Positions 2,453 through 17,816 of a stretch of 54,920 nt of DNA are shown here, piece by piece. A program made the translations under genes and the position numbers. The notes beneath the pieces are model-generated. The model was not told the origin of the DNA. It did no database searches and saw only the letters and a list, made by a program, of their open reading frames with translations. Numbering within the stretch: position 1 is the first letter of the stretch; every line of letters starts with the position of its first letter. This stretch comes from Thermodesulfobacteriota bacterium (GTDB lineage: Bacteria; Desulfobacterota; Desulfobacteria; Desulfobacterales; C00003060): NCBI GenBank assembly GCA_034189385.1, contig JAXHVD010000028.1, positions 1-54,920 of the forward strand, in the 5' to 3' direction.

Positions 2453-4150
2453 CTATTGTTGTATGTGCTTCCTTAGAGCAGCCGTGAATGGCTCCGTCCG
2501 GATGTTATCCCGATGGAGATTACCAGCCGCAACGGCCCGAACACAAGCTTCCGCCTCCTCGAATAGAGCTTTGGCCCGAGCATCATCCCACAGTACCTCC
2601 ATCAGACCCTCTCCGTACCGCCGCATTTCATGTGAGTTCATCGTGGGCAGCGGATCTGTCGAGTAGAGAAGGCGGGACGCGAACAGCAAGTGATAGCGGG
2701 CGGCCTTGAGTTCTGCCGCCATTTGCTGGTTCCTGAAGAGAAACTCCAACCGATAGTGTGCATAGCCGGCAACGTAGTAGGGCTCGAGGCGGTGGCTCGG
2801 GTTGAAGATATCCGTGCCGACAGTTTTGAGCAGGGCTTTGTAGTTTTTTGTCGTCCGATGGGGCATCTCAAGGAACATTGACGCGAAGGCTCGGACCAAA
2901 GCCCGCATGTCCAGAACGCGAACTTTCTCGATACCATCAACTGCGTTGTATTGCCGTGATCTACGCTCATAGTACAGCTTTTTCCTGCCAACGAAGGTTG
3001 GGAAAAAAGCCTCTAGATTCTTGGGAAAATCAGACAAGGCAAAGAGTTGATCTTCTGTGACCTGTGTCTGGCGATTGGTCGCCTTGATAATCGCATTGCG
3101 GATGTCCACGTCTTCCGTCGCGATTAGGCGTATCGGAACAGCGACATCGTCCAGTTCATTACCTTTTTCGTGCAGAACATAGCTTGTTTGACAACCGTTC
3201 ACGACCGTATAGTCCTCGACCACGAACTTGTTGGCCGTCGGTGCGACTCGCTTCGCGACGATCGTCACCCCGTTGTTCATCAGCGGAAAGTAGATCCGTC
3301 GTTCAGGATCATCAAGGGTTTCCTTCATTTCCTTATTCACGGGGTTCCATTCCTGCCAGTGACGAACATTGTCGTAGAAAAGCGTCGTCAGTACCTCCTG
3401 ATTCTCGTTCTCAATTAGCTTCATGAACTCCCTAGCCGGAAGAACTCCAATATATGCCTGCTCTACGCCAGGCAAGTCAGGAAGAACAGTACGATCGGTA
3501 AATGTGATTTCGGTGCAGATCGCATTCTTGGAATGGCGATAAAGCCCTTGCAGTTCCTCTGCCCCCAAGCAGACAAATCTGACCTTCCTAAAGAGACCGA
3601 GGTCTTCTACATCACGGGCGACGGCATCCCTCCGTGCGGTGAGGTTCTGATCGTCACTCCACCTTCCCGTGGTTGTGTAGTAGAGGAAGCACTGGGGATT
3701 GCCCTTTGTGAATCTGGCGCTCCGGTCGAATATCTCGTTGACTATGCGGTATGCCAACTGCACATCGTCGTTCTGCGGCAGTGAGGGTGACTCAGACAGA
3801 AAATCGGCGACACCGAAGCCGAACTGTCCAATCTTCGCGGTCTCGAATGAAGAGGACCTCTCTGCTTGAACGAAGACCAATGTCACGTCGAGGTACCCAT
3901 TTGTCTGCTCGAGATCTTCGATTTCCTCTGGATCGGTGACCAGGCAGCCGTTGACTATTACCGTGATGCAGTCTATTCCGCAGTCTCCGCCAGCGCCAAC
4001 CGATATGTCCTCACTCGAGAAAGATTCAGAGAAATGGCTTGCGGTAACGAGAAAGCCGCAAAAATGCTCAAAGGCTGTTTCCTCTGGGAGGGTGCCGAGG
4101 CTGTTGTCATTAACAAACTCGTCGAGGAGAGATTTCGTTATTCTATCCAT
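2453..4150 (-). CDS. AIPR family (abortive infection phage resistance) protein
   Basis: Motifs LFYDNVR, MNNGVTIVA, VVNGCQTS and IIKATNRQT; N-terminal GGDCGID motif; 565 aa. Confidence 0.88.
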   Translation of the reverse strand: MDRITKSLLDEFVNDNSLGTLPEETAFEHFCGFLVTASHFSESFSSEDISVGAGGDCGIDCITVIVNGCLVTDPEEIEDLEQTNGYLDVTLVFVQAERSSSFETAKIGQFGFGVADFLSESPSLPQNDDVQLAYRIVNEIFDRSARFTKGNPQCFLYYTTTGRWSDDQNLTARRDAVARDVEDLGLFRKVRFVCLGAEELQGLYRHSKNAICTEITFTDRTVLPDLPGVEQAYIGVLPAREFMKLIENENQEVLTTLFYDNVRHWQEWNPVNKEMKETLDDPERRIYFPLMNNGVTIVAKRVAPTANKFVVEDYTVVNGCQTSYVLHEKGNELDDVAVPIRLIATEDVDIRNAIIKATNRQTQVTEDQLFALSDFPKNLEAFFPTFVGRKKLYYERRSRQYNAVDGIEKVRVLDMRALVRAFASMFLEMPHRTTKNYKALLKTVGTDIFNPSHRLEPYYVAGYAHYRLEFLFRNQQMAAELKAARYHLLFASRLLYSTDPLPTMNSHEMRRYGEGLMEVLWDDARAKALFEEAEACVRAVAAGNLHRDNIRTEPFTAALRKHIQQ

Positions 4151-4329: not shown

Positions 4330-4989
4330 TCACGTATGCGGACGACCTTGTCGGATGAACTTGTCCACTCGCTTGATAAGCGAGTCCAGATATGCTCCCA
4401 CCATGCTGACTCCTTCTAGTTCAAGCCTTAATAACTCAAAACTCCTGTAAAGATCATCATAAAAGGGTTTCAACTGATCCTCAGAGTGCCCAAGAACCCT
4501 CCCAGCTTCCGGAGGTAGAGTATTCCTCAACCATCGGTCCCATATTTCCACAAATTCAACCAGGGCGCCGAAGTATTGAAGGGTTGATGCCTTGGCCAGT
4601 CCCATGTTGGAAGCAAAATGGTTAACCATTTCCCTATAGAGAGGCATAATTTCTTCGACAAATTGCCGGTTGCTGTCTTCTATTACTTTTTCAAAATCGG
4701 GAAAACGCTGTTCCGTCTGCCTTAGGGACTCACTGTCACGCACCGCGCTAAGACGAGATCTGCTTACGAGTTCCCCCCACGCTTTACTAGTCGCACCTTC
4801 CACCTTCAGACGCACCTCGCTCTTGGCCAATATTTGCGCACGCAATCCGAGTAGATGACCATAGAAATTGTCAAGTTGTTCTCGAATCCGACGATGAACC
4901 CGCTCTTTACGTTGATTTTGGGCCGAAATGTAGCCTCCAATTACAACACCTAGCAGCCCTGAAAGCGCAGAAATGATAGCATACCCCAT
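4330..4989 (-). CDS. Hypothetical protein with N-terminal transmembrane helix
   Basis: MGYAIISALSGLLGVVIGGYIS hydrophobic segment, then a basic stretch and a helical soluble domain. The ORF track opens at 5004. Confidence 0.7.
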   Translation of the reverse strand: MGYAIISALSGLLGVVIGGYISAQNQRKERVHRRIREQLDNFYGHLLGLRAQILAKSEVRLKVEGATSKAWGELVSRSRLSAVRDSESLRQTEQRFPDFEKVIEDSNRQFVEEIMPLYREMVNHFASNMGLAKASTLQYFGALVEFVEIWDRWLRNTLPPEAGRVLGHSEDQLKPFYDDLYRSFELLRLELEGVSMVGAYLDSLIKRVDKFIRQGRPHT

Positions 4990-5109
4990 GTCAAAGGCTC
5001 CCAAGATACACGTTCATTTGCATTATGGCATGCAATATCGGATTCAATCTGTGATCAACCTCCTTGTACTACGAAAAACTAGATTCTTAAGAACCGGCTT
5101 GTCAATACC

Positions 5110-5315
5110 TTGCCAAGACCATGCCGAAGCCCGTCCATCAAAAATCTAAGATACTTGAAGATTATCCGCCAGGGAAACTCGGAAACCGGTCGAACCAGGT
5201 GTTTGATTGCCTGCCCTTATCAGGGTCGGTCCCCGCAATCCACCCCGAGCGGACAACTTGCCAAGAGCACGCCGAAAACCGTTGCTCAAAAATCAAAGAT
5301 ATTCGACGATTATCC
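5110..5315. repeat. Imperfect 58-bp direct repeat pair (5110-5167 and 5258-5315)
   Basis: TTGCCAAGACCATGCCGAAGCCCGTCCATCAAAAATCTAAGATACTTGAAGATTATCC aligns without gaps to TTGCCAAGAGCACGCCGAAAACCGTTGCTCAAAAATCAAAGATATTCGACGATTATCC. Confidence 0.8.
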
Positions 5316-5528
5316 CAACGCCGGGCAGAACACAGATTGCCTGTCCCAACCTACACATTGCCATGTAGGAGAATTGTCAGTGACAACGCATCCGCCAAGG
5401 ACAATTCTTCCTGCCTCAAGGTCTCTTTCGAGTCTGGCACTATAGGCATGCTCGCCATAGAGAATTCCGGCAATACGCTATGACCCACACTCCGGGCCTT
5501 TGTGGGGTTTCTTCCTCGCCTTGTGCAT
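5310..5528 (-). pseudogene. Small Zn-ribbon protein with an in-frame stop (copy 2)
   Basis: MHKARKKPHKGPECGS*RIAGILYGEHAYSARLERDLEAGRIVLGGCVVTDNSPTWQCVGW... is clearly homologous to 1758-2023. Absent from the ORF track. Confidence 0.75.
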
Positions 5529-5605
5529 GTTCAGCGCAACGGTCTCTTGTGCATGGTGAAACAGCTCGCTCTTCCTTGACGGAACTCTCAGTCAGTTCCC
5601 CATGC

Positions 5606-6028
5606 TCACTCGAAAAGCTCTGGATAACTCAGCTGTAGGCGACGCCAAAACTCACAAAACGATTCTGCATCGAGCTCTCCCTTCAGCCTGGCTGCTTGCA
5701 AGATTTCCTCTTCATTCCAAATATTTCTCAGCGGCTTGTTAAGAAGTTTTACAGCTAACGCGCAGATCGCTCCCCCCACCCCGCTTTGTCTAGAGTTGGG
5801 TTCCACCCAGATATTTTGGATATCTGCGTTCCTGTCACCGCCTTCGAAATTAGCATATCCAATGTGATTGCCTGCTAATGTCACCCTAATAGTCAATTCA
5901 TCATCTTCTGTCTGATACCAGAGTTCGAACCCAGCCTCAATAACTCTTGTGAGAGCTGAGTGGGGGCTGTTTTCGATGGTATCTGATGCGGCCACAAATT
6001 TGTCGTCAGTTGGCATTGAATCTCTCAT
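5606..6028 (-). CDS. GNAT-fold acetyltransferase-like protein
   Basis: HIGYANF strand and IQNIWVEPNSRQSGVGGAI (acetyl-CoA-binding motif A, R-x-x-G-x-G). The start overlaps the stop of the upstream large gene; alternative start at 6016. Confidence 0.65.
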   Translation of the reverse strand: MRDSMPTDDKFVAASDTIENSPHSALTRVIEAGFELWYQTEDDELTIRVTLAGNHIGYANFEGGDRNADIQNIWVEPNSRQSGVGGAICALAVKLLNKPLRNIWNEEEILQAARLKGELDAESFCEFWRRLQLSYPELFE

Positions 6029-8948
6029 TCAACAGCGGTCTGAATTGTAGGTAGCCGCGACTTCCTAAATGATGAATCAAAGCCCTGGCCAACTCCGCTG
6101 GCTTGCCCCCACATTGCAGTGCGTTTGACAGGATGGTTTGGGCTTCCTCGATCCACCCATGTATGCTCCAACCTTCCTCGTCACCTTTGGCAAGGTATTC
6201 CAAACACTGGACCGCTTCCAAAGGCATTTTTTCAGAAATTGCTGCAAGCCTGTCCACAACAAGATGGACTGGATCAGTCTTTTTCATTAGTCTCAAAGTT
6301 TCCAGGAGCTGCTTTATCGCCCATTCATCATCAATTTTGCCAGAGGCAAACCACGACCCAAAAGCTCGCATTTCAGATAGATTCTCTTGTCTGTTAGAAG
6401 CAGTCTGGGCTTCACTGAAACGGGTCTTCCAGAGCTGCTTAAGACAATCTAGAACCTCGGTTGCAACATCTCCTTCTGTGTTTCGAAGACTCCGCCCTAC
6501 GAATTCCAGAGCGCTCCCCCTGACGGCAGGTGAGGCCTTTTCCCAAAACCTACTCAAGAAGCCGTTGGGCTCGTCCAGACTGAGTCTTCCTCTCCAGTAG
6601 AAGACCATCAGATGCTGCCCAAGCCTCACCTGCGGACTTTCATACTCATCAGTTTCCTCGCTTGGTTCGTCTAATCGATCAATTGCGAGAGCGTATTGAT
6701 CTTGAAGTGCTTCGAATACGTAATTATACGCATAGCAATGGGTGACATACGTGTCCCACGCGGCATGCCATAATGGTCTCTCCTTTTCTGATAAGGGAAA
6801 AATCCTATTTGCATTCTCGTGGGACCAAGTAGAATCGAGTGAAACAAGCCAAGGAAAGGACTGGCCATAGACTGCTCGAATAGCCAAAGAAGACTCAACT
6901 GAAGTGTTTAGACGGGTTTCTAGAACATGCTGCACCTCACGCATCTCACCAAATCCCCGAGCCAATCGTTCTTCTGAATCGGGTTCTTTCTTCAAATGAC
7001 GTCTTACCCACAATGCATATCTAATGACCGCGTGCATTGCCGCCCCGCGCGTTGTGTTGAAAGAAGCTGTTATCGGATCCAAATCGGTTCCACCGCTCTC
7101 TGCTTCATATTCCGGTGTGGGTTCAGGATCCTCGGTCAGGGTTTGAAGTACTCTCCAAACTTCTTCTCGGTATTCGTAGGTGAGAGGGCTCTCATCTTCT
7201 TTGAGTGCCAGAGAGAGAAAATCTACAATTGCTTTCCGCGTCCAGCCCCAATGAGGGTCTTCGTCCCTTCCGTTGTCTTCTGTGACCTGCATATCCCTCT
7301 TTTGTTCCAGGACCCAATTACAAAGACCCAAGACCGGTTTCCATGTGAAAGCCTTGTCTTTTCCGACGGCATCCCTCAACCCTACAAGCAATGCACGCAC
7401 ATACGTTGGATGCAACTCTTGAAATCTGGCTGCTTCATCGGAGAAGACATGTGGTCTCTCGCTCACAACAGAGGATAACACTCTTCCCAATCCTTCGCGA
7501 GACGGGGCCATTGGCTCGCCGGATGGTTTCCACGTTCTGAGAAACGATACCACCTCCGGCAAGGTCATATTCTGAAGCTCATCTGCGCTTTTAGGGCTGG
7601 CTGGTCCAACCCAACTCCTCGAATAACTGGGGAATGCTGGATGCTCTGGCTCACCGCCCTCGGCCACAAGTTCTTCGTAACGATCCTTCCACTCTCTGGG
7701 AAGCGCTTCTTTAAACCATGCAAGCCGAAGTCTCTGCCAGCCCTTTCTATAGCGGTCAGCATCATCATCCGTCTGTGGAACACCCGTAAACTCTTCCTCC
7801 CGCTTCTTGAATTCTTCAAGATTAGGGCCTTCTTCTATCCATCCGAGGATAATTTTCTGCTGTTGATCCGGCAGCAATCCAAAGCAATCATTCAACAGCA
7901 TTGCGTATTCGTGTTGGTAGGCTGCACCATCAAAGAGGGCACGATTCGTCAGGCGTTGGGCGATCAAATCAAGGGCAGAATGCGGAAATAGCCTTAGAAG
8001 ATGGAGAGCGATACGCTGAAATACTGGCCAGGGGTACCTATCACTTTCGAGTATCCCTATTAGGTTTACAACGTTTATAGATCGTGCTCGAATGAGCGAT
8101 TTGCATGCGTCGCGTACTGAGGTAACTAGCAGGTCCCTCAACCCATGATGTCGGTTTTGCGGATGATCCTCTATGGAAGGGCGCCAGATCCACGAATAGT
8201 CCAAGGGCAAAGTCCCAATAGCCTCTCTTCGAGAATATTGGAGTGCACTTCCCAACAGATCACAAAGCAGTTCAATCGCCCGGGTGCCAGCCACCTTCAC
8301 TAGTTCTGGAACATTCTTGTCAAGGATTTCCTTGTATTCCCATTGATCGAATCGGGGAGTTGGTTGCGGAGATAGATGTTCTTTCACTCTTTGTCGGCTT
8401 TTCGGATCAGGCAAGGCCTCAAGAAGCGTTCTGGTAAGCCGAAGCGCAGCATCGACCTGTCCGCCACGGGCAAAATGCTCGACTAGAATACCGAGTTTTC
8501 GTGGCAACAGGAACTGATGTGACGACTTCGCCCAACTCACTGCTTTTTCTGTCAGCTTTGCCGAGAGCTCGGCTGGCATGGCTGTTGCCGCATCAGCCAA
8601 ATCCTCATAAACAAGGACATTTCCAACGTCAGGGAGACACGATATCACATCTGCGACTTCTTCCGGTCTTGACTGTGCGACCCGCGCCAAATAGCCAGAC
8701 TGAGGCCATATAGGAAAACTTACCACGCCTCTTTCAGGATCTATGTGAGGTGGTGGAACACGACTGAACCTGCCTCCGCGAATTAGCAGGTCAAGCCACC
8801 GTACGTCTCGCAGGGAGCTGTAAAAATATCGAACGGAGGCTTCTTCTTGAAGCAAAGGATCCACATCCCTTTCCAGGTCACAGATTGCGGGTCCTCTTTT
8901 CACGACATCATCTATTCTTGCCAGCCTGTCAAAAAAGGGCTCTTTCAT
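6006..8948 (-). CDS. Large (980 aa) predicted all-alpha protein, partner of SIR2; no NTPase motif seen
   Basis: ATG 8948 overlaps the SIR2 stop (ATGA), with AGGTG upstream. Leu/Trp-rich helical composition; no Walker A found by eye. The ORF track opens at 9014. Confidence 0.8.
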   Translation of the reverse strand: MKEPFFDRLARIDDVVKRGPAICDLERDVDPLLQEEASVRYFYSSLRDVRWLDLLIRGGRFSRVPPPHIDPERGVVSFPIWPQSGYLARVAQSRPEEVADVISCLPDVGNVLVYEDLADAATAMPAELSAKLTEKAVSWAKSSHQFLLPRKLGILVEHFARGGQVDAALRLTRTLLEALPDPKSRQRVKEHLSPQPTPRFDQWEYKEILDKNVPELVKVAGTRAIELLCDLLGSALQYSRREAIGTLPLDYSWIWRPSIEDHPQNRHHGLRDLLVTSVRDACKSLIRARSINVVNLIGILESDRYPWPVFQRIALHLLRLFPHSALDLIAQRLTNRALFDGAAYQHEYAMLLNDCFGLLPDQQQKIILGWIEEGPNLEEFKKREEEFTGVPQTDDDADRYRKGWQRLRLAWFKEALPREWKDRYEELVAEGGEPEHPAFPSYSRSWVGPASPKSADELQNMTLPEVVSFLRTWKPSGEPMAPSREGLGRVLSSVVSERPHVFSDEAARFQELHPTYVRALLVGLRDAVGKDKAFTWKPVLGLCNWVLEQKRDMQVTEDNGRDEDPHWGWTRKAIVDFLSLALKEDESPLTYEYREEVWRVLQTLTEDPEPTPEYEAESGGTDLDPITASFNTTRGAAMHAVIRYALWVRRHLKKEPDSEERLARGFGEMREVQHVLETRLNTSVESSLAIRAVYGQSFPWLVSLDSTWSHENANRIFPLSEKERPLWHAAWDTYVTHCYAYNYVFEALQDQYALAIDRLDEPSEETDEYESPQVRLGQHLMVFYWRGRLSLDEPNGFLSRFWEKASPAVRGSALEFVGRSLRNTEGDVATEVLDCLKQLWKTRFSEAQTASNRQENLSEMRAFGSWFASGKIDDEWAIKQLLETLRLMKKTDPVHLVVDRLAAISEKMPLEAVQCLEYLAKGDEEGWSIHGWIEEAQTILSNALQCGGKPAELARALIHHLGSRGYLQFRPLLNERFNAN

Positions 8949-9916
8949 GGAAACACCTTTTGACTCAGACCATGTCTGACTTCTGACGAAACCTGGATAT
9001 GAGCTCTGTTGCATAGCTGTTCAAGAAGTTCTTCGACCTCGCTATGTCGGTCGTCAGTTGGTTCATATCTTACCACTTCAATCTCCATTTCCCCAAATCG
9101 AACATCCTCGGCCTGTTCAGCCTGATAGTCACGTTCAATGCCTTTTCCAGCAGAAGCGATTCTGATTTCATCGCTCCCAGAATATAGCGTGGGGCGGAGT
9201 ACAAATCTCTGAGGTGTACGTGCCCCTGGCTGCGAACGTTGGATCTGAAGATGGATTGTGTGGACTCTCGCAAAAGCCTCGTACATGGCAGGTTCAGCCA
9301 GACTGCAGCCTATGAACAACACATCATAATATAGCAGCAGTTGGGTTAAGAAGTCCGCAACGGGGCCGGTATTGCCGTAGGCCAGATCATACTCACTCGT
9401 CGATAGGACGAGCCCCTCTCCTCTCGGCATGTTATTCTGTCTTGCCAGACCGTGAAGATGGAAAATCGAACCAGGATTCCTCTCGATGATAGGAATTGGA
9501 AGTGCTGGATATGTACAGACCGTCCTTTTTCCATGGGCTCCTGCGGCATCGTCAAGAAGAGGATCGAAATTTGTAGTGACATAAGCCCTGAAAGGCAATT
9601 TCATTAGCAGGTGAAACGCACGCCGCGTTGTCACAACGGGGCCGCCAAAGAGTTGGCCTAGCGACGTATTGTAGGCCGTAAGATTGGCTTGTTTGCACTC
9701 ATCAGCCTTGTCCATGAGCTCATCGGCAGATGGGTAGTGCTCTGGAGGCAGAGGTGTCACCTGACAGGCTTTGCATAGGTGACGAACAGTCTCCTGCCAG
9801 CCAGGATAGTCGGCCACTTCCGAAAGCCCCGCTCCCACCCAGGCAACGCAGTTACCGTTCTTGATTATTGGCCAGAGCTTCACTGATAGCCGCGTTAAGT
9901 CGTCAAGGCTCAACAT
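8945..9916 (-). CDS. SIR2-like (SIR2_2, defence-type NADase) protein
   Basis: WVGAGLS, YVTTNFD, IFHLHG and VLFIGCSL motifs; AAGGAG RBS before the ATG. Confidence 0.88.
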   Translation of the reverse strand: MLSLDDLTRLSVKLWPIIKNGNCVAWVGAGLSEVADYPGWQETVRHLCKACQVTPLPPEHYPSADELMDKADECKQANLTAYNTSLGQLFGGPVVTTRRAFHLLMKLPFRAYVTTNFDPLLDDAAGAHGKRTVCTYPALPIPIIERNPGSIFHLHGLARQNNMPRGEGLVLSTSEYDLAYGNTGPVADFLTQLLLYYDVLFIGCSLAEPAMYEAFARVHTIHLQIQRSQPGARTPQRFVLRPTLYSGSDEIRIASAGKGIERDYQAEQAEDVRFGEMEIEVVRYEPTDDRHSEVEELLEQLCNRAHIQVSSEVRHGLSQKVFP

Positions 9917-10269
9917 GTCTCCTTTGCAGATTCACCATCTCCAGTCAAAACTCTGAAATAGGCGTGCCCCTCCCAAAAGACATGTTTGACTCGCCGTTGT
10001 TTCAGCCACTCCCCAGCTGGCAGACGTGAGGACGGGGTTTCTGTTGACTCACGATTTCCTTCTCCGTTCAAACTGGAAGACAGCGCAGCCTTCGGCGTAT
10101 CGAATACCATGGCTGTTTCTCAAACGCCGGCAAAACGGGAGCTCTTTCAATGCATATATTCGTTCCGTCCCCGAATGCCTTCTCGGAGCCATGGAAAACG
10201 CCCAACAACCAACTCTTCCCTATTCCAAGGCTCTGGCAAGTGTCAGACCGCGCTCGCCAAAAATCACCC

Positions 10270-13200
10270 TCAGGCAGCGGCTGAACTGCCACTCTCATAC
10301 GTCAGCGTAAAGACCGAATCGGCGAGCCACTTCCTAAAGCTCGGGTTGTCGCTGAACTGTTTGAAAAGCTCCGTGTCGTCGGCCAGGAGTTCCAAGACAG
10401 CCCTTTCGAGTGCCCTGTCATGCTCAATTCGCGCGTTCTGTTTGTCTGAGTTTTTAATAGCATTCTGGTAGGCCCTATCCGCTGCCACTTTCTGGGGGAT
10501 CTCCTTGCTTACCATCTGCTCTATTCTGTCTCTGTCCCTCCAGTCTATGTTGCCAAACTGGTCGTTAAATGCCTTAATAATGTTGCTGAGAAGGTCTAGT
10601 TCCACCTCAGGCTTTCTACCGCCGCCGTCCGTGGGGACCGGCCCAATTTCAGCATCTTGGTCCGCGAGAGAGATCTCCACAGATGCCTTGACTTCCACTC
10701 GGTAACTGTCCATATCGATGGCTTCCAAGATCCCCTTTGAAAGGTCTTCTTCAATGGGTGCAGGCAACTTCGGAATCAGGAAGTTCAAGAAGATGGAAAG
10801 CTTCTCCCACTCTGCATTGGTATATGGCAGAATCGAAGCCAAGAAGTTGTAAGCCCGGACGAAGGCCTTGGCCTTGCCTTTGAAGTCTACCTGCCCGTCC
10901 TCGTCAAGGTCGGCTTTATACACTGCCACACAGGCGTCGAGGATGGGATCAAGCCGATCCCGGTCGGCGCCACCGAGATACAGCTCCGCCAGACTATCGA
11001 CTTGTTCTTGCCCGTAGACCTGATACCGGTCAAGCGTGGCCTTTAGGTCATGCAGCTTGTTCGGATCAGTCTCTTCGCTCAGGATCGTGGTGCGGTAGTA
11101 TTCGGAAAAGGCATCCTGTATGGTATCCACGTCGTTCACAAAGTCGAGCACAAAGGTGTCGTGTTTGCGAGGATCGGCCCGGTTCAGGCGGGAGAGGGTT
11201 TGCACCGCCTTGATATCTGTTAGCACCTTGTCTACGTACATGGTGTGAAGTAGTGGTTCGTCATAGCCGGTCTGAAACTTCTCCGCCACAATCAGAAAAC
11301 GATACGGATCTTTCTGACGGATTCCCTTGACCTGCTCGGCTTTGAAATAATGCGGAATTTGGGAGCTCGGGAAGCCGTTCAGGGAGGCCTCAGTTACCTT
11401 CCTGCCGACGTATTCATGTTCCCCAGAAAAGGCCACAATAGGCCGGTACGGGCTCTTCCGCTCCCGAAGGTAGTCAAGAAAGGCATGATAGTATTGAATC
11501 GCCCTTTCAATCCTGCCTGTAACCACCATGGCCCGAGCCTGGCCGCCAATCTTGCGCCGGGCAAGCACGTGGTCGTGGAAGTGGTCCACCATGATTTCAG
11601 CCTTCTGCCGGATGGCGTGTTCGTGCGATTCAATATAACGGCGAAGCTTCTTCCTGGCCCTCTTAGAGTCAAACACGGGATCGTCGGGGATCGTCTTCAT
11701 CAGGCGATAGTAGCTTTCCACCGGGGTGAAGTTCTTGAGCACGTCCATAATGAAGCCTTCCTGGATGGCTTGCTTCATTGTGTAGGAGTGAAAGGGGCGA
11801 TGCTTGACCTTGTCACCAGCCGGATAAGGCTCTCCGAAGATCTCCAAGGTTTTGTTCTTGGGCGTCGCGGTGAAGGCAAAGTAGCTCGCGTTTGAAAGCA
11901 TCTTACGTGCTTCCATAATCCTGTTGATCCGGTCCTCGAAGGTCTCCTCCTCTTCTTCGACGCCTTGCTCGGAAAGGGCGATGTTCATCTTGGCAGAGGT
12001 GCGCCCGCCTTGGCTGGAGTGGGCTTCGTCGATGATGATGGCGAAGTTCCGGCTCCGATGTTCATCTCCAATCTCGTCCAAGATGAAGGGGAACTTCTGT
12101 ACCGTGGAAATGATGATCTTCTTGCCCTCTTTGATAAAGCGTCGCAGGTCGCCCGAGCGTTCGGCATGGCCCACCGTGGCCGAGACCTGGGCGAATTGCT
12201 TGATGGTGTCCTTGATTTGCTTGTCCAACACAAGGCGGTCCGTCACCACGATAATCGAGTCAAAGACCATCTTGTCGTTTCTTGAAAGACCAATGAGCTG
12301 GTGAGCCAACCAGGCAATGGAGTTGGACTTGCCGCTGCCAGCCGAGTGCTGGATCAGGTAGCGCTTGCCTGCTCCCTTTTCCTTAGCATCGGCAAGAAGC
12401 CCTCGCACCACGTCAAGCTGGTGATAGCGCGGGAAGATCTGTTTTCGCTTCTTCTTTCCTGTCTTGGCGTCCTTTTCCTCCACGATTTGGGCGTAGTTTT
12501 CGAGGATGTCTGACAGGCCCCACCGCGTCAGAACCTCCTTCCACAGATAATCCGTCTTGATGCCACCTGGGTTTGGAGGATTGCCCGCCCCGTCGTTGAA
12601 GCCCTTGTCAAAGGGCAGAAACCAGGAGTGCTTGCCTTTGAGATGCGTACACATGCGAACTTCTTGATCGTCCACTGCAAAGTGCACCGCACAGCGGCTG
12701 AACTGAAAAAGAAGCTCCCTGGGATCCCGCTCCCGCTTGTATTGTTGGACGGCGTCCGCCACGGTTTGTTTCGTCAGATTGTTCTTTAACTCGAAGGTCG
12801 CAAAAGGCAGGCCGTTAATAAAAAGGGCCATATCGAGGGCAAGCAGGGTTTCGTCCCGGCTATAACGCAACTGACGGGTAACGCTGAATATGTTCGCCCG
12901 GAATAGCTCCTCTGCCTTAGTGTTTCCCGGCGTTGGCGTGGCGTAGAAAAGGTCAACAGAGGCCGGGCCGTGTTTGACGCCGTTCCTTAGCACGTCAATG
13001 ACGCCCCGCTTTGCGGTCTCACCTTGAAGGCGATGCAGGAACTGCTGACGCCTCGGTCCGTCCTCACCAAGGCCAAGCACCTCGACCGCCTTGGGTTGAG
13101 TCGTGATCAAGAAGTCCAGCAGCTTGGCCAGGTCCACCGCATGCTCACGGTCATAGTCACTCGGATCACCGCATATCCAGCCACCGCCACCGTAGGCCGG

Positions 13201-13308
13201 TGTCGGCTCCCGCACGTCACCCGGTCGGGGCGGGTCACAGGGGCGTCCGGTGAGGGCCGTGCAGATCAGCCGTTCAAGGCCGCGTTCGGTGGTATCAGAA
13301 ACGGTCAT
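10270..13308 (-). CDS. hsdR: Type I restriction enzyme R subunit
   Basis: D..ELK nuclease motif (LDMALFINGLPFATFELKN), QHSAGSGKS Walker A, IIDEAH, FTATP, QTLSRLNR. ATG 13308 has a GGAGG RBS and overlaps the upstream stop (ATGA). Confidence 0.95.
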   Translation of the reverse strand: MTVSDTTERGLERLICTALTGRPCDPPRPGDVREPTPAYGGGGWICGDPSDYDREHAVDLAKLLDFLITTQPKAVEVLGLGEDGPRRQQFLHRLQGETAKRGVIDVLRNGVKHGPASVDLFYATPTPGNTKAEELFRANIFSVTRQLRYSRDETLLALDMALFINGLPFATFELKNNLTKQTVADAVQQYKRERDPRELLFQFSRCAVHFAVDDQEVRMCTHLKGKHSWFLPFDKGFNDGAGNPPNPGGIKTDYLWKEVLTRWGLSDILENYAQIVEEKDAKTGKKKRKQIFPRYHQLDVVRGLLADAKEKGAGKRYLIQHSAGSGKSNSIAWLAHQLIGLSRNDKMVFDSIIVVTDRLVLDKQIKDTIKQFAQVSATVGHAERSGDLRRFIKEGKKIIISTVQKFPFILDEIGDEHRSRNFAIIIDEAHSSQGGRTSAKMNIALSEQGVEEEEETFEDRINRIMEARKMLSNASYFAFTATPKNKTLEIFGEPYPAGDKVKHRPFHSYTMKQAIQEGFIMDVLKNFTPVESYYRLMKTIPDDPVFDSKRARKKLRRYIESHEHAIRQKAEIMVDHFHDHVLARRKIGGQARAMVVTGRIERAIQYYHAFLDYLRERKSPYRPIVAFSGEHEYVGRKVTEASLNGFPSSQIPHYFKAEQVKGIRQKDPYRFLIVAEKFQTGYDEPLLHTMYVDKVLTDIKAVQTLSRLNRADPRKHDTFVLDFVNDVDTIQDAFSEYYRTTILSEETDPNKLHDLKATLDRYQVYGQEQVDSLAELYLGGADRDRLDPILDACVAVYKADLDEDGQVDFKGKAKAFVRAYNFLASILPYTNAEWEKLSIFLNFLIPKLPAPIEEDLSKGILEAIDMDSYRVEVKASVEISLADQDAEIGPVPTDGGGRKPEVELDLLSNIIKAFNDQFGNIDWRDRDRIEQMVSKEIPQKVAADRAYQNAIKNSDKQNARIEHDRALERAVLELLADDTELFKQFSDNPSFRKWLADSVFTLTYESGSSAAA

Positions 13309-14093
13309 TTCTTTCCTCCGGCGTGTCCCGCAAATACCCGCCACTCCAAATCGAGCGAGCGGATGATGGGGCGAAAGGGCGTGCCGCAAACCATTACCTT
13401 GCTCTCCCAAACACCGTCAGGAACAATACCCTTTGAGTACTTATAGACCGCATTGCTCCAGGCTTCTGCAGACGGAAATGGGCTGGACATTTCATCCGCA
13501 TTCAGGAAGCCCAGGTACACAAGTATAACTGGAATGCCCATGGAGGCCAGCTTCCAGCTCCACGCGAAACGATTACAGAGCTGGTAGTGCGCATCACGGG
13601 AAAGCGCCCAGCCGGAATGGTAGCTCTTCAGATCATTATTCGCGTCCTCAATTGCCAAACCGATCTGCTCATGATTCTTCTTACCATTCTCCGTTGTCGG
13701 TTCTGTTTTCCCGGCAATGGCCAACTCATTCATATGGGCTTTCGCCTCGACAAGAATCAGGCCTCTTCTCCCTTCAATGCTGCAGTCTGCGACAAGATCC
13801 CAGTTGGGTGTGTTGGCCCTTGGCTTCACCTCCAACCACCAATCCATAACGGTCTCTCGGTCTTTCGGTTTAAGGAACAGCTGCGCTTCACCCAGACGCG
13901 CCTCTGCTGGTTCCAGAAGGCCTTTTGGCATCCACTCGTCTTTCTCGCTGTGAACCACACCATAGGGCTGAACAAGCTCAGAAAGACACAAGGCAATCTG
14001 CTTTCGTGGCAGACTGGTCAGCATCAGACACCGCAGCCTGCTGCCCTTGAGATCCGTCTTCTGGAGAGTCACAGTCTTCTCACCCGTGAGCAT
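13305..14093 (-). CDS. PD-(D/E)XK nuclease-like protein embedded in the hsd operon
   Basis: NWDL...LILVEAKAH (D...E-x-K) and a downstream YQL motif; overlaps both hsdS and hsdR. Confidence 0.65.
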   Translation of the reverse strand: MLTGEKTVTLQKTDLKGSRLRCLMLTSLPRKQIALCLSELVQPYGVVHSEKDEWMPKGLLEPAEARLGEAQLFLKPKDRETVMDWWLEVKPRANTPNWDLVADCSIEGRRGLILVEAKAHMNELAIAGKTEPTTENGKKNHEQIGLAIEDANNDLKSYHSGWALSRDAHYQLCNRFAWSWKLASMGIPVILVYLGFLNADEMSSPFPSAEAWSNAVYKYSKGIVPDGVWESKVMVCGTPFRPIIRSLDLEWRVFAGHAGGKK

Positions 14094-15498
14094 CTACAGC
14101 CTCCATGGAAGTTCCTTCCAAATCGTCTGTCAGGGTCTCGCCGTCGTCCATCAAGTCTTCGGCATCCTCCAGCCGGTCGAGCTCATCGGTTTCTTCGGGC
14201 AGCTTTGCCGCCGCTTCGCGCACGTCCAACTTACCGGTTACCACGTCGGCAATCAGTCGGGTCCGGTATTCGCGGCGGAGTTCGATTTCGCGTTTGACGC
14301 GCTCTTCGGTGCGTTCTAGCTCCTGTATGCTTGCAGCTATGCCCCGAACGATGCGTCTCTGCTCCTCTTCCGGCGGTAAAGGCAGCTTGATTGTCCCAAA
14401 TCGATCCGTATATAGCCGCATGAAGCCGGAAGATCCAGTGCCAAGCCCTTTGGACTCGATGCGGAAAACGCTGCTAGCGGCTTGAGTTTTGAACAGCCGT
14501 AAGAAATACATTGGGTCGACGTTTTCAATCGGCTCAAAGACCGCGTAATCGGGACTAACAAGTCCAGCTTGATTTGCGATACCGAACATACCAATTGCGG
14601 CCCGCATCCGGTTCATTACAATCTGCCCGGGCTCAACCTTCTTGAAACCAACCAACGCTTGAACTGTGATCGGAATGGTTGATACTTCATTGTGAGGCAC
14701 GAGTCCTTGGTACATGCGTAGCGATAGCAACAGCTCCGAACCTGTCCTGGACCGATGATCCACCTCGCGAAATAGATACTTTGCTCTGCGCACCTCCCAA
14801 TGCTCAGGCACCTCCCCCAGCCATTCGACGCCTGAGGGCTTGAAGGGAACGTTGGGGTCGAGGCCCCGGGTGACTGCGTGGTGGATGATAGTTTGCTTTT
14901 GCTCCTCCAGCAGCTTGTTCAGCTTCCGCTTGGCCCGCACATATCGCCGCAAACGCTGATCCACGTAATCCAGCAAGCGCACAATTGCGGCTTGTTCCGA
15001 TTGTTCGGGAACAACAATCGGTAGCTCCAACAAGTCCTTTGGGCCGAGTGTTGCCCGAACGCCTCCGCCGAGTCGATTGAACACCTCGCGCTGATAAAGG
15101 TCAAAGTACTGATGGAAGAAGAAACGCTGCACTCCATTGTGTGTCGCCACCAAGCGAACATATGCGGGACTCATAATGCCATCCTGGTGCACAAGCCCAA
15201 CTCGACTTGTACGCAGGTTTTCCAAGTCAATAAGTTTGAAAACCAAATCCCCCTTTGCAAAAAACTGATACGTCGCGTAGTCCTTTGGAACCAACCCCTC
15301 TGGATTGTTGGGGTCGTTGTTGACCACGCCGCGGAGGGTCAGAGACAAGACATTTGTGTGTTGCCCCCCAGCATTGATTTCCTTCTTGTGGCGGAACAGC
15401 CATTTGCCTCGCAACACATCCCAATGCTCCGGTACCTCCCCGAGCCAGGGCACGCGTGAGTCCTTCATCTGAGGATAGGGCTTGAGGTCGGTAATCAT
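14080..15498 (-). CDS. hsdS: Type I restriction-modification specificity subunit
   Basis: Two repeats starting WLGEVPEHW, P..EQ..IV conserved spacers, LIADVVTGKLDV; acidic tail. Confidence 0.93.
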   Translation of the reverse strand: MITDLKPYPQMKDSRVPWLGEVPEHWDVLRGKWLFRHKKEINAGGQHTNVLSLTLRGVVNNDPNNPEGLVPKDYATYQFFAKGDLVFKLIDLENLRTSRVGLVHQDGIMSPAYVRLVATHNGVQRFFFHQYFDLYQREVFNRLGGGVRATLGPKDLLELPIVVPEQSEQAAIVRLLDYVDQRLRRYVRAKRKLNKLLEEQKQTIIHHAVTRGLDPNVPFKPSGVEWLGEVPEHWEVRRAKYLFREVDHRSRTGSELLLSLRMYQGLVPHNEVSTIPITVQALVGFKKVEPGQIVMNRMRAAIGMFGIANQAGLVSPDYAVFEPIENVDPMYFLRLFKTQAASSVFRIESKGLGTGSSGFMRLYTDRFGTIKLPLPPEEEQRRIVRGIAASIQELERTEERVKREIELRREYRTRLIADVVTGKLDVREAAAKLPEETDELDRLEDAEDLMDDGETLTDDLEGTSMEAVDAHG

Positions 15499-17816
15499 CC
15501 GCTTGTCTGCCTCCGTCCAACGATCCCATCTAGAAGCCCCTCGGTTTCCTTTCCCAGCGCCAAGATGTCTGCCCGGATCTCTTCCAGGCCGCGCATCGGC
15601 TGTGGTTTGTAGAAATAGCGCGTGAATGAAATCTCGTAGCCAATCTTCGTCTTACTGTCATCAATCCAGGCGTCGAAAACATAGGGCAGCACTTCGCAGC
15701 GAAAAAAAGATTCAATTCCACCATCTTGGAGCAGCGGCACTTGTTCGGTGTCGCGCAGTTGTGTGTCAGGCTCGTATGTAACGATCGAAGTCTTGCCGTG
15801 TATATCAACTTCGTAGCGGCCGAGGAGCGCATCGGCCTCCGCTGTCCCTGGTTTATACACCTTCTTGACAACTGGAGGTGCCTCAGCCTCCGTCCAGCTC
15901 ACCGCGCGCTGAATGATTTTCTTTTCTGCAGCTGTCAGCTTCAGTCCGATGTTCTTGAGTTCAGCATCGAAGCGGCTGCGAAATTCGTTGTGATCCGGGA
16001 AGTATTCGTCTCCTAACACCGTGTGTAGCTCTCGAGCCGCTTCTAGCAGTTTGACATCTCGTGCCCATGTTTGAGGCTTCAGCAACTTTTCTTTCTTCTT
16101 GTCTGTCAGGTTATGCTTACTTGACTTCTGATCCTCCTCGTCGGCGTCTCCCTTCAGGAATTCCAGTACTTGCTGGCGAATGCCCGGGAGGTCGCGGTAT
16201 ATCTCCTGGCCGAATTCCATGAAAATGTCCCTGCGGACCCCATCGTCACCGGAAGCATAGCGCAACCCCTCGACCGCTTTCTTTGTGAACTGGCTTCGAA
16301 GCCGAAGTGGGCGCTCCACTGTGATCTTCCAGTAGCCAAAGGCGGCGTTGTCAAAAATCTTTGACTGCTCAGTCTCCTTGAATGCGAGAGACGTCTCGCA
16401 GATGCGCTGGATGTCCTCTTCCGACATCTCGCAGTTCTTCTTGCCAAGGTTCTTCCGCCGCGGCCTAAACCACTGTGTAGCGTCTATCAGCTGCACCTTG
16501 CCCTTACGATGTCCGGGCTTTCTGTTGGTCAATACCCAAATGTAGGTAGCAATGCCGGTGTTGTAGAACATGTTCAGCGGCAGCGCGACGATGGCCTCCA
16601 GCCAGTCGTTCTCGATGATCCAGCGACGGATATTGCTCTCGCCTTGGCCGGCGTCGCCGGTAAACAGGGAACTGCCGTTGTGCACCTCGGCTATGCGACT
16701 GCCCAGCTTGGTGCTCTGCTTCATCTTACTGAGCTTGTTCACTAGGAACATAAGCTGACCATCATTGGAACGGGTGACAAGACTGAATTCGGGATCTCCA
16801 GTGTGCTCTATGACAAACCGAGGATCTGACAGGTCCCTTTTTCCGCCCATGCGCTCAAGATCGGTCTTCCAGCTTTTACCATAAGGCGGATTGGAGAGCA
16901 TAAAGTCGAATTCCCGAGCAGGAAAGCCGTCGGTGGACAGTGTCGAGCCGTACACCAGGTTGTCGGCTTCAGTACCTTCACCCTTTAGGAGCAGATCGGC
17001 CTTGCTGATAGCGAAAGTTTCCGGGTTGATCTCCTGGCCGTAGAGATGGATCGACACATCCTTGCCGTGTGCCACTGCCAGTTCTGAGAGCCGTTGCTCA
17101 GCCACTGTCAGCATACCGCCAGTACCACAGGCCCCGTCATAAACAAGATAGGTCCCTGATTCCACCTGGTTGGCAATAGGTAGGAAGACCAGCTCGGCCA
17201 TAAGCCTGACCACATCTCGGGGTGTAAAGTGCTCTCCTGCCTCCTCGTTGTTCTCCTCGTTGAACCGGCGGATCAACTCCTCGAAGATCGTGCCCATGGC
17301 GTGGTTGTCCAGGGCAGGCAGCTTTTCGTTCCCGTCGGAGTCGTAGACCGGTTTCGGGCTCAGATTAATGGACGGGTTGACGAACTTCTCGATCAGATGA
17401 CCTAGGATGTCTGCTTCCACCAGCGTGGGTATTTGATTGCGGAACTTGAATTTGTCGAGAATCTCCTGGACGTTTGGGGAAAATCCATCAAGATAGGCCT
17501 CAAAGTCGGCTTTGAGCTGCTGCTGTTTGGCACGGGCCTTCAGATCTCGCAGGGTGAACGGCGAGGTGTTGTAGAATGATTGCCCCGAGGCCTGGCAAAG
17601 CGCTGCGTCTTGGTTGCTAATGCTTGCCCTGTCGAGCTGTTCCTTCATCTTGAGGACAGCGTCCTTGGTCTCTTCGAGGACCCCATCCACCCGACGAATC
17701 ACTGTCATCGGCAAAATGACGTCCCGATACTTGCCCCTCACATACACGTCCCTGAGAACGTCGTCAGCAATGCCCCAAATGAAGTTTACGATACCGTTGT
17801 GCAGAGCATAATCCAT
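15495..17816 (-). CDS. hsdM: Type I restriction-modification methyltransferase
   Basis: AGEHFTPRDVV, YDGACGTGGML, NPPY (N6-adenine MTase), GYEISFTRYFY. Confidence 0.95.
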   Translation of the reverse strand: MDYALHNGIVNFIWGIADDVLRDVYVRGKYRDVILPMTVIRRVDGVLEETKDAVLKMKEQLDRASISNQDAALCQASGQSFYNTSPFTLRDLKARAKQQQLKADFEAYLDGFSPNVQEILDKFKFRNQIPTLVEADILGHLIEKFVNPSINLSPKPVYDSDGNEKLPALDNHAMGTIFEELIRRFNEENNEEAGEHFTPRDVVRLMAELVFLPIANQVESGTYLVYDGACGTGGMLTVAEQRLSELAVAHGKDVSIHLYGQEINPETFAISKADLLLKGEGTEADNLVYGSTLSTDGFPAREFDFMLSNPPYGKSWKTDLERMGGKRDLSDPRFVIEHTGDPEFSLVTRSNDGQLMFLVNKLSKMKQSTKLGSRIAEVHNGSSLFTGDAGQGESNIRRWIIENDWLEAIVALPLNMFYNTGIATYIWVLTNRKPGHRKGKVQLIDATQWFRPRRKNLGKKNCEMSEEDIQRICETSLAFKETEQSKIFDNAAFGYWKITVERPLRLRSQFTKKAVEGLRYASGDDGVRRDIFMEFGQEIYRDLPGIRQQVLEFLKGDADEEDQKSSKHNLTDKKKEKLLKPQTWARDVKLLEAARELHTVLGDEYFPDHNEFRSRFDAELKNIGLKLTAAEKKIIQRAVSWTEAEAPPVVKKVYKPGTAEADALLGRYEVDIHGKTSIVTYEPDTQLRDTEQVPLLQDGGIESFFRCEVLPYVFDAWIDDSKTKIGYEISFTRYFYKPQPMRGLEEIRADILALGKETEGLLDGIVGRRQTSG

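Follow-up and report, generated by a model that had tools for sequence, protein, structure and literature searches.

A probable two-gene, split form of the Dsr1 anti-phage system in a Thermodesulfobacteriota bacterium

We analysed a 54,920-nucleotide stretch of DNA from a Thermodesulfobacteriota bacterium (hereafter the window; contig JAXHVD010000028.1 of assembly GCA_034189385.1). On its minus strand lie a gene for a stand-alone SIR2 protein, a gene for a large helical protein and a small open reading frame (ORF) with a GNAT fold. We consider it probable that the first two genes are a split, two-gene Dsr1 anti-phage system, in which a sensor activates a SIR2 NADase, and that the GNAT ORF is a bystander. 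The parts of this reading differ in strength. We are highly confident that the pair is a Dsr1-type defence in split form, and nearly as confident that NADase activity is its output; a direct complex of SIR2 and sensor is likely; and the phage major capsid protein (MCP) is, on balance, the trigger that we expect. Features are collected in Table 1, in window numbering; all module genes are on the minus strand.

The sensor is recognizable from models of Dsr1. PADLOC model PDLC04166 matches the 980-residue protein (E 2.7e-52), and close relatives of this protein span positions 290 to ~1216 of the 1227 in the model, which is all of it except SIR2. The comparison profile for Dsr1 comprised eight single-chain proteins over 1208 positions (four annotated 'anti-phage defense-associated sirtuin Dsr1', one from E. 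coli). Sensor residues 20–969 align to its positions 290–1198 (hhalign 99.7%, E 1.3e-26, 848 columns) and the SIR2 family to positions 6–267 (profile comparison, 99.7%). The two ORFs, which are in different frames, thus tile Dsr1. The preliminary description of this locus had proposed a helical partner, and the AlphaFold2 model is indeed an alpha-solenoid made almost entirely of helix (mean predicted local distance difference test score, pLDDT, 89.5), with a low-confidence flexible linker at residues 441–447. Fold searches with this model returned only generic HEAT/ARM/TPR/importin-type solenoids and Avs4, the latter with the best Foldseek template-modelling (TM) score, 0.40; Dsr1, DSR2 and Avs7 entries were absent from the matches, which excludes none of them, and sequence searches brought up no SeAvs7 entry either. 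The sensor family comprises 4127 clusters at E up to 1e-30. Among the matches listed, the closest relative comes from a Thermodesulfobacteriota metagenome-assembled genome (64% identity). Distribution within the phylum is patchy, with any sensor match in 14 of 301 genomes, and the phage collection gave no match to the sensor.

The SIR2 protein looks like an intact enzyme of the defence type. As first described, the 323-residue ORF carries GAGLS, TTNFD and HLHG motifs, and its Pfam SIR2_2 match (E 6e-16) is above the cut-off. All 34 paired SIR2 sequences keep G28, G30, T114, N116, H155 and G156 without exception, and H155 aligns with the KomC position that is altered in the H146N structure. The nearest folds of the predicted model (pLDDT 90.8) are ThsA (Z 24.1, root-mean-square deviation 3.1, 267 aligned), KomC (Z 21.3) and Avs5 (Z 18.9), whereas deacetylase sirtuins score Z 12.7 or less; by its model, then, the protein resembles defence NADases, not deacetylases. 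No close SIR2 relative was present in the 18 other genomes of the genus. A small helical domain of this SIR2 clade has cysteines conserved at positions 48, 51 and 74 (27/34, 34/34 and 28/34), which may form a metal site or a redox switch.

The third line of evidence is the split itself. The TGA of the SIR2 gene and the ATG of the sensor gene share an ATGA, and an AGGTG precedes the sensor ATG with a 5-nt spacer, just as had been seen at the outset. A metagenome scan with the SIR2 profile gave 80 loci, 52 of them above 130 bits; the remaining 28 belong to different SIR2 families and were not considered further. From the 52 we removed nine in which the SIR2 gene runs off the contig end (two) or is truncated (seven, among them L111, where only a C-terminal sensor fragment follows). 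Every one of the 43 loci whose SIR2 gene has an intact 3' end continues into a separate sensor gene, identified by profile in 39 and by its first codons before the contig end in four; several of these loci are near-identical copies. Junctions were surveyed in 48 SIR2–sensor loci from both scans, representing 40 distinct SIR2 sequences. An ATGA or GTGA overlap occurs in 36 of the loci and in 30 of the distinct sequences. Many lineages maintain SIR2 and sensor as two coupled genes. A second group of stand-alone SIR2 proteins (L181, L182 and L194, the last on a plasmid of a cultured Vibrio coralliilyticus, WP_040122581/2) is also coupled to a distant sensor gene, which brings the number of SIR2 lineages with such a split to at least two. 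The 'split DSR-like architecture' proposed earlier is therefore borne out, and with the PDLC04166 match, the profile tiling and the conserved split it can be named split Dsr1. A complex prediction for SIR2 with sensor residues 1–660 had a median score of 0.22 against a mark of 0.32, and we did not use it for or against binding. Separately, the distant sensor of L182 matches, among the matches listed, SIR2-family proteins on Bacillus cereus-group plasmids, pXO1-type records included, which look like single-chain Dsr1-like relatives.

How might such a system work? According to the accessible text of Garb et al. (10.1101/2021.12.14.472415), DSR1 depletes NAD+ during infection, and for phi29 the depletion is transient, without culture collapse. 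The portions of PMC13581612 and its preprint PMC12803255 on which we draw describe a bilobed TPR sensor common to Avs7 and Dsr1, and report that MCP is the sole trigger of SeAvs7 and EcDsr1 among 73 ZL19 genes. These two proteins belong to distinct sensor clades, sensor relatives that lack an NTPase carry diverse effectors, and the structures presented are of Avs7 (same portions of both texts). By analogy, translational coupling would supply SIR2 and sensor in about equal amounts, and the two would associate non-covalently. The bilobed sensor would wrap newly made MCP, and the MCP-bound sensor would change shape or oligomerise, switching SIR2 on. Active SIR2 would then hydrolyse NAD+, and phage replication would stall.

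Several observations weigh against this reading. Only 13% of the columns are identical in the match between the sensor and Dsr1 profiles, so the homology is remote. The NCBIfam Dsr1 equivalog NF041818 gives 31.1 and 48.9 bits, against a cut-off of 1400. No solved structure in the PDB gave a meaningful sequence match to the sensor or its profile. Finally, in 18 of 28 split loci the two ORFs closest to the module on either side include nothing recognisable as a defence gene (several of these loci are on short contigs), leaving a defence-gene context, as we read it, in 10. Because homology to the canonical E. coli-type Dsr1 is remote, the trigger could have changed, and a sensor lineage that keeps the same architecture and detects a phage or mobile-element protein other than MCP is an alternative that we take seriously without favouring it. 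It draws on the remote identity to the tested sensors and on Avs4, whose related fold is the best Foldseek match and which binds portal. However, SeAvs7 and EcDsr1 respond only to MCP in the ZL19 set despite lying in different sensor clades. Inverted wiring of the same parts, as in a toxin–antitoxin pair, is improbable. Here SIR2 would be constitutively active, the helical protein would restrain it and a phage protein would release it. Separate chains that are tightly coupled in 36 of 48 loci suit such a design, as does the observation that in this clade no SIR2 gene whose 3' end is intact was seen without the sensor (43/43). But in toxin–antitoxin operons the antitoxin gene usually comes first, and in this module the effector gene does. 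Most defence SIR2 domains, moreover, require oligomerisation for activity, which also speaks against the inverted wiring. In the fused Dsr1 and Avs7 proteins, furthermore, the sensor activates upon MCP binding (PMC13581612 and PMC12803255, in the portions cited above).

Could the two genes simply be a broken single-chain Dsr1, through frameshift, assembly error or programmed frameshifting? The ORFs do tile Dsr1 end to end, and 39 of the 48 junctions share one frame offset. Yet the other two offsets account for the remaining nine junctions (seven and two), and some gaps reach 32 nt; the use of all three offsets argues against programmed frameshifting. A second sample from the study yielded a 209-nt contig that spans the window's junction with no differences; the window itself may derive from the other run. 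Nor does the SIR2 have close fused relatives. Searches for longer relatives found eight weak matches (best 71 bits), compared with 152–324 bits for 26 stand-alone relatives, although a blank for close fused relatives is weak evidence with the search tool used. A quick IQ-TREE tree of 57 SIR2 domains places the 35 stand-alone members together (Shimodaira–Hasegawa-like approximate likelihood-ratio test support 99), apart from eight fused Dsr1-type domains (100) and the three of the second stand-alone group (100); the groups were chosen by score, so that their separation is partly circular. The split is real and conserved, and we give almost no credence to an artefact. The last alternative, three interacting components, is very unlikely. 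The GNAT ORF had been put forward as a third, regulatory component; its acetylation would regulate SIR2 or the sensor, or the sirtuin would reverse it. The ORF is on the same strand and does overlap the sensor stop (by 23 nt if it starts at the first ATG, by 11 nt if at the second), though not with an ATGA-type junction. Its assignment as GNAT stands at the level of fold (Atlas, TM 0.63, with several of the nearest clusters mainly viral) and fails in Pfam (best match Acetyltransf_1, E 0.0031, below all cut-offs). What tells against a role in the module is the lack of co-occurrence with sensor and SIR2 homologues. A phmmer search of all ORFs in 161 loci found only the window's own copy (0 of 160 related loci), and no relative was found in the 300 other genomes of the class (1/301 being the window's own). 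None of the 91 ORFs flanking 28 split loci matched a GNAT family (E up to 0.005), in a scan of at most two ORFs of at least 90 residues per side in which a GNAT this divergent would sit near threshold. A sirtuin opposing the GNAT is also argued against by the SIR2 fold, which is closest to defence NADases. We read the GNAT gene as a locally acquired passenger, a bystander of the split Dsr1 module.

How does this locus compare with known systems? Like Dsr1, it has SIR2 followed by the same helical sensor, in the same order and with no NTPase, and its 323 + 980 residues compare with ~1200–1280 in Dsr1. It differs in being two polypeptides, in having its SIR2 in a clade of its own and in having nearest sensor relatives that mostly accompany HEPN-like effectors. 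The catalytic motifs of SIR2 are intact and the helical sensor is of the Dsr1/Avs7 type; the single chain and the NF041818 score are what it lacks. We therefore regard it as a variant of Dsr1 with a probably Dsr1-like mode of action, not as a member. Avs7 shares the sensor family (PMC13581612, in the portions cited) and a similar sensor length (the SeAvs7 TPR deletion 561–1523 covers 963 residues), and the relatives of the sensor include an AAA ATPase fusion. Here, however, the effector is on a separate gene and there is no STAND NTPase between effector and sensor: the partner has neither a Pfam family nor a Walker A pattern, and neither ORF has room for one. ThsA, KomC and Avs5 are the nearest solved folds of SIR2, with the catalytic histidine aligned in KomC. 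Unlike ThsA, our SIR2 protein lacks a C-terminal SLOG/macro domain (323 residues against a 478-position model, matched at 16–217); unlike Thoeris and Avs5, it has neither a TIR ThsB neighbour nor a STAND domain, and its partner is a Dsr1-type sensor. Thoeris was rejected because the ThsA models matched nothing beyond their SIR2 part and no TIR protein was found among the 13 scanned. DSR2 also combines SIR2 with a large helical sensor, and the SIR2 is weakly similar to DSR2 chains (E 2.5e-05), but the partner matches no Dsr2 model in PADLOC or NCBIfam and does match Dsr1 models. SIR2-HerA and SPARSA (SIR2-pAgo) were set aside. Across the 13 window proteins scanned with Pfam and PADLOC, TIR, HerA and short Argonaute were all missing (the only HerA match, E 0.008, is trivial and lies inside HsdR).

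The module had been put forward as undescribed, which goes too far: both the sensor family and what triggers it are in the literature, PDLC04166 matches, and Lee et al. (Nature 2026, PMC13581612, in the portions cited) analysed 'split proteins', which their methods mention. In a literature search that covered subscription journals thinly, we found no study devoted to a two-gene Dsr1; the one relevant paper was PMC13581612, whose Supplementary Table 8 may list split architectures, perhaps with this one among them. The catalogue of SIR2 systems in PMC10952713 gives no split form in the part available. The idea of a split as such is not new. To it the locus contributes a large SIR2 clade for which only stand-alone members were found, evidence that effectors are swapped on the sensor and the testable idea of a docking helix.

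Table 1. Module features and neighbouring defence genes, in window numbering
Feature	Position	Strand	Basis
Stand-alone SIR2 (SIR2_2), 323 residues, predicted NADase effector, catalytic N116 + H155	8945..9916	-	Pfam, conservation, fold
Free-standing Dsr1/Avs7-type alpha-solenoid sensor, 980 residues	6006..8948	-	PADLOC, profile match, model
SIR2/sensor ATGA stop/start overlap with AGGTG ribosome-binding site, translational coupling	8945..8958	-	Sequence
Sensor N-terminal helix, ~residues 1–18, FF motif, candidate effector-docking element	8895..8948	-	Model and alignment
GNAT-fold ORF, 140 residues (136 from second ATG), read as adjacent passenger	5606..6028	-	Sub-cut-off Pfam, Atlas fold
Type I restriction-modification operon: hsdM, hsdS, 262-residue ORF, hsdR; upstream of module	10270..17816	-	Pfam and PADLOC
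AIPR/AbiU gene downstream of module	2453..4150	-	PADLOC AbiU E 7e-126; Pfam AIPR

The sensor is also met with other effectors. Among the best 80 genome loci for the sensor (L001–L080), a separate HEPN-like gene lies upstream in 36 and a HEPN-like module is fused in 27; eight have a separate SIR2 gene and nine are unclassified. The commonest partner is thus a HEPN-like module of 150–250 residues (63/80). Its name, which derives from sub-threshold Pfam pP_pnuc_1 matches, a weak link between two profiles (probability 80%) and the published name of a similar Streptomyces protein, is a sequence-based lead, not a test. None of four stand-alone HEPN-like examples had a PADLOC match, and this uncharacterised family is larger than that of the SIR2 form. 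Relatives of the sensor also occur as fusions with an AAA ATPase (Haloferax) or with a HEPN-like N-terminus (Streptomyces), both of them architectures described in the Avs7/Dsr1 paper. On a FastTree tree of 99 sensors, from which short or broken pieces of 34 loci had been left out, it takes 11 changes to account for the SIR2-coupled label, and starred branches force at least six of them; FastTree support is weak evidence, and the pattern suggests repeated effector exchange.

If effectors are exchanged, what would attach them to the sensor? The sensor model has a helix at residues 5–18. An N-terminal helix with an aromatic pair is present in 29 of 29 SIR2-coupled sensors and in one of 31 coupled to split HEPN-like genes, although the motif was picked after the alignment had been viewed. 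In an independent-pairs test of helix against effector type, five of five pairs go in the same direction (p 0.0625, not significant). By eye, the helix of SIR2-coupled sensors corresponds to the final helix of the HEPN-like module, whether that module is fused or split. We hypothesize that it is an effector-docking element.

Some loci carry unusual combinations. In L087 (6960–11813) and L089 (also P0285, 1617 residues) a SIR2-coupled sensor has a C-terminal pyruvate kinase (Pfam PK and PK_C), possibly through a lost stop or a real fusion. L185 (G144:C53:1-4298) has the 3' end of a SIR2 gene and then a sensor with an N-terminus that by eye resembles a TIR domain; the locus would combine two NAD-targeting modules. 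Further architectures (L047, 4135–8982; L031, L046 and L048) are AAA_35 with HEPN-like module and sensor in Nostoc, and DUF4062 fused to the separate HEPN-like gene in Pyrinomonadaceae.

The module of the window lies in a defence island, as judged from hsdM, hsdS, hsdR and a DUF3644/PDC-S19 gene (Pfam/PADLOC) upstream and the AIPR/AbiU gene downstream. The type I restriction-modification operon reported to adjoin the module is indeed there, upstream and on the same strand, with 353 nt between the hsdR stop and the SIR2 start. A promoter and terminator scan of 4900–10500 found sites no commoner than in shuffled sequence, and no promoter-like site on the minus strand. The ORF between hsdS and hsdR (13305–14093, minus strand) has no match in Pfam, PADLOC or NCBIfam; by eye it carries what we take to be a PD-(D/E)XK-like motif. 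Three further island genes, at 579–1361, 1321–1848 and 4330–5004 (all minus strand), have no family. Of their products, the one of 260 residues has, by eye, a presumably gamma-glutamylcyclotransferase-like start and an RxxxxH motif, and the one of 224 residues begins with a hydrophobic helix. Downstream of the GNAT ORF, positions 5400–5483 hold a short stretch common to several unrelated contigs, which suggests a small repeat or the end of a mobile element.

Tentatively, then, the Dsr1/Avs7 capsid sensor may be a platform into which separately encoded effectors plug, activating them in trans with neither NTPase nor second messenger and swapping them as cassettes. SIR2 (in at least two independent clades) and HEPN-like effectors would alternate on the sensor tree, the break point would be effector-specific and the N-terminal helix would serve as a docking code. 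If this is true, exchange of the helix should re-wire sensor to effector. The natural two-chain form should in any case make the route from capsid binding to NADase activity, which Dsr1 achieves without an NTPase, more accessible to testing, as each of the two proteins can be expressed, purified, deleted and swapped on its own. Split loci are probably under-counted, since one-gene Dsr1 models give either half only a partial score, and the sensor family is large, with a commonest partner, the HEPN-like module, that PADLOC matched in none of the four examples tested.

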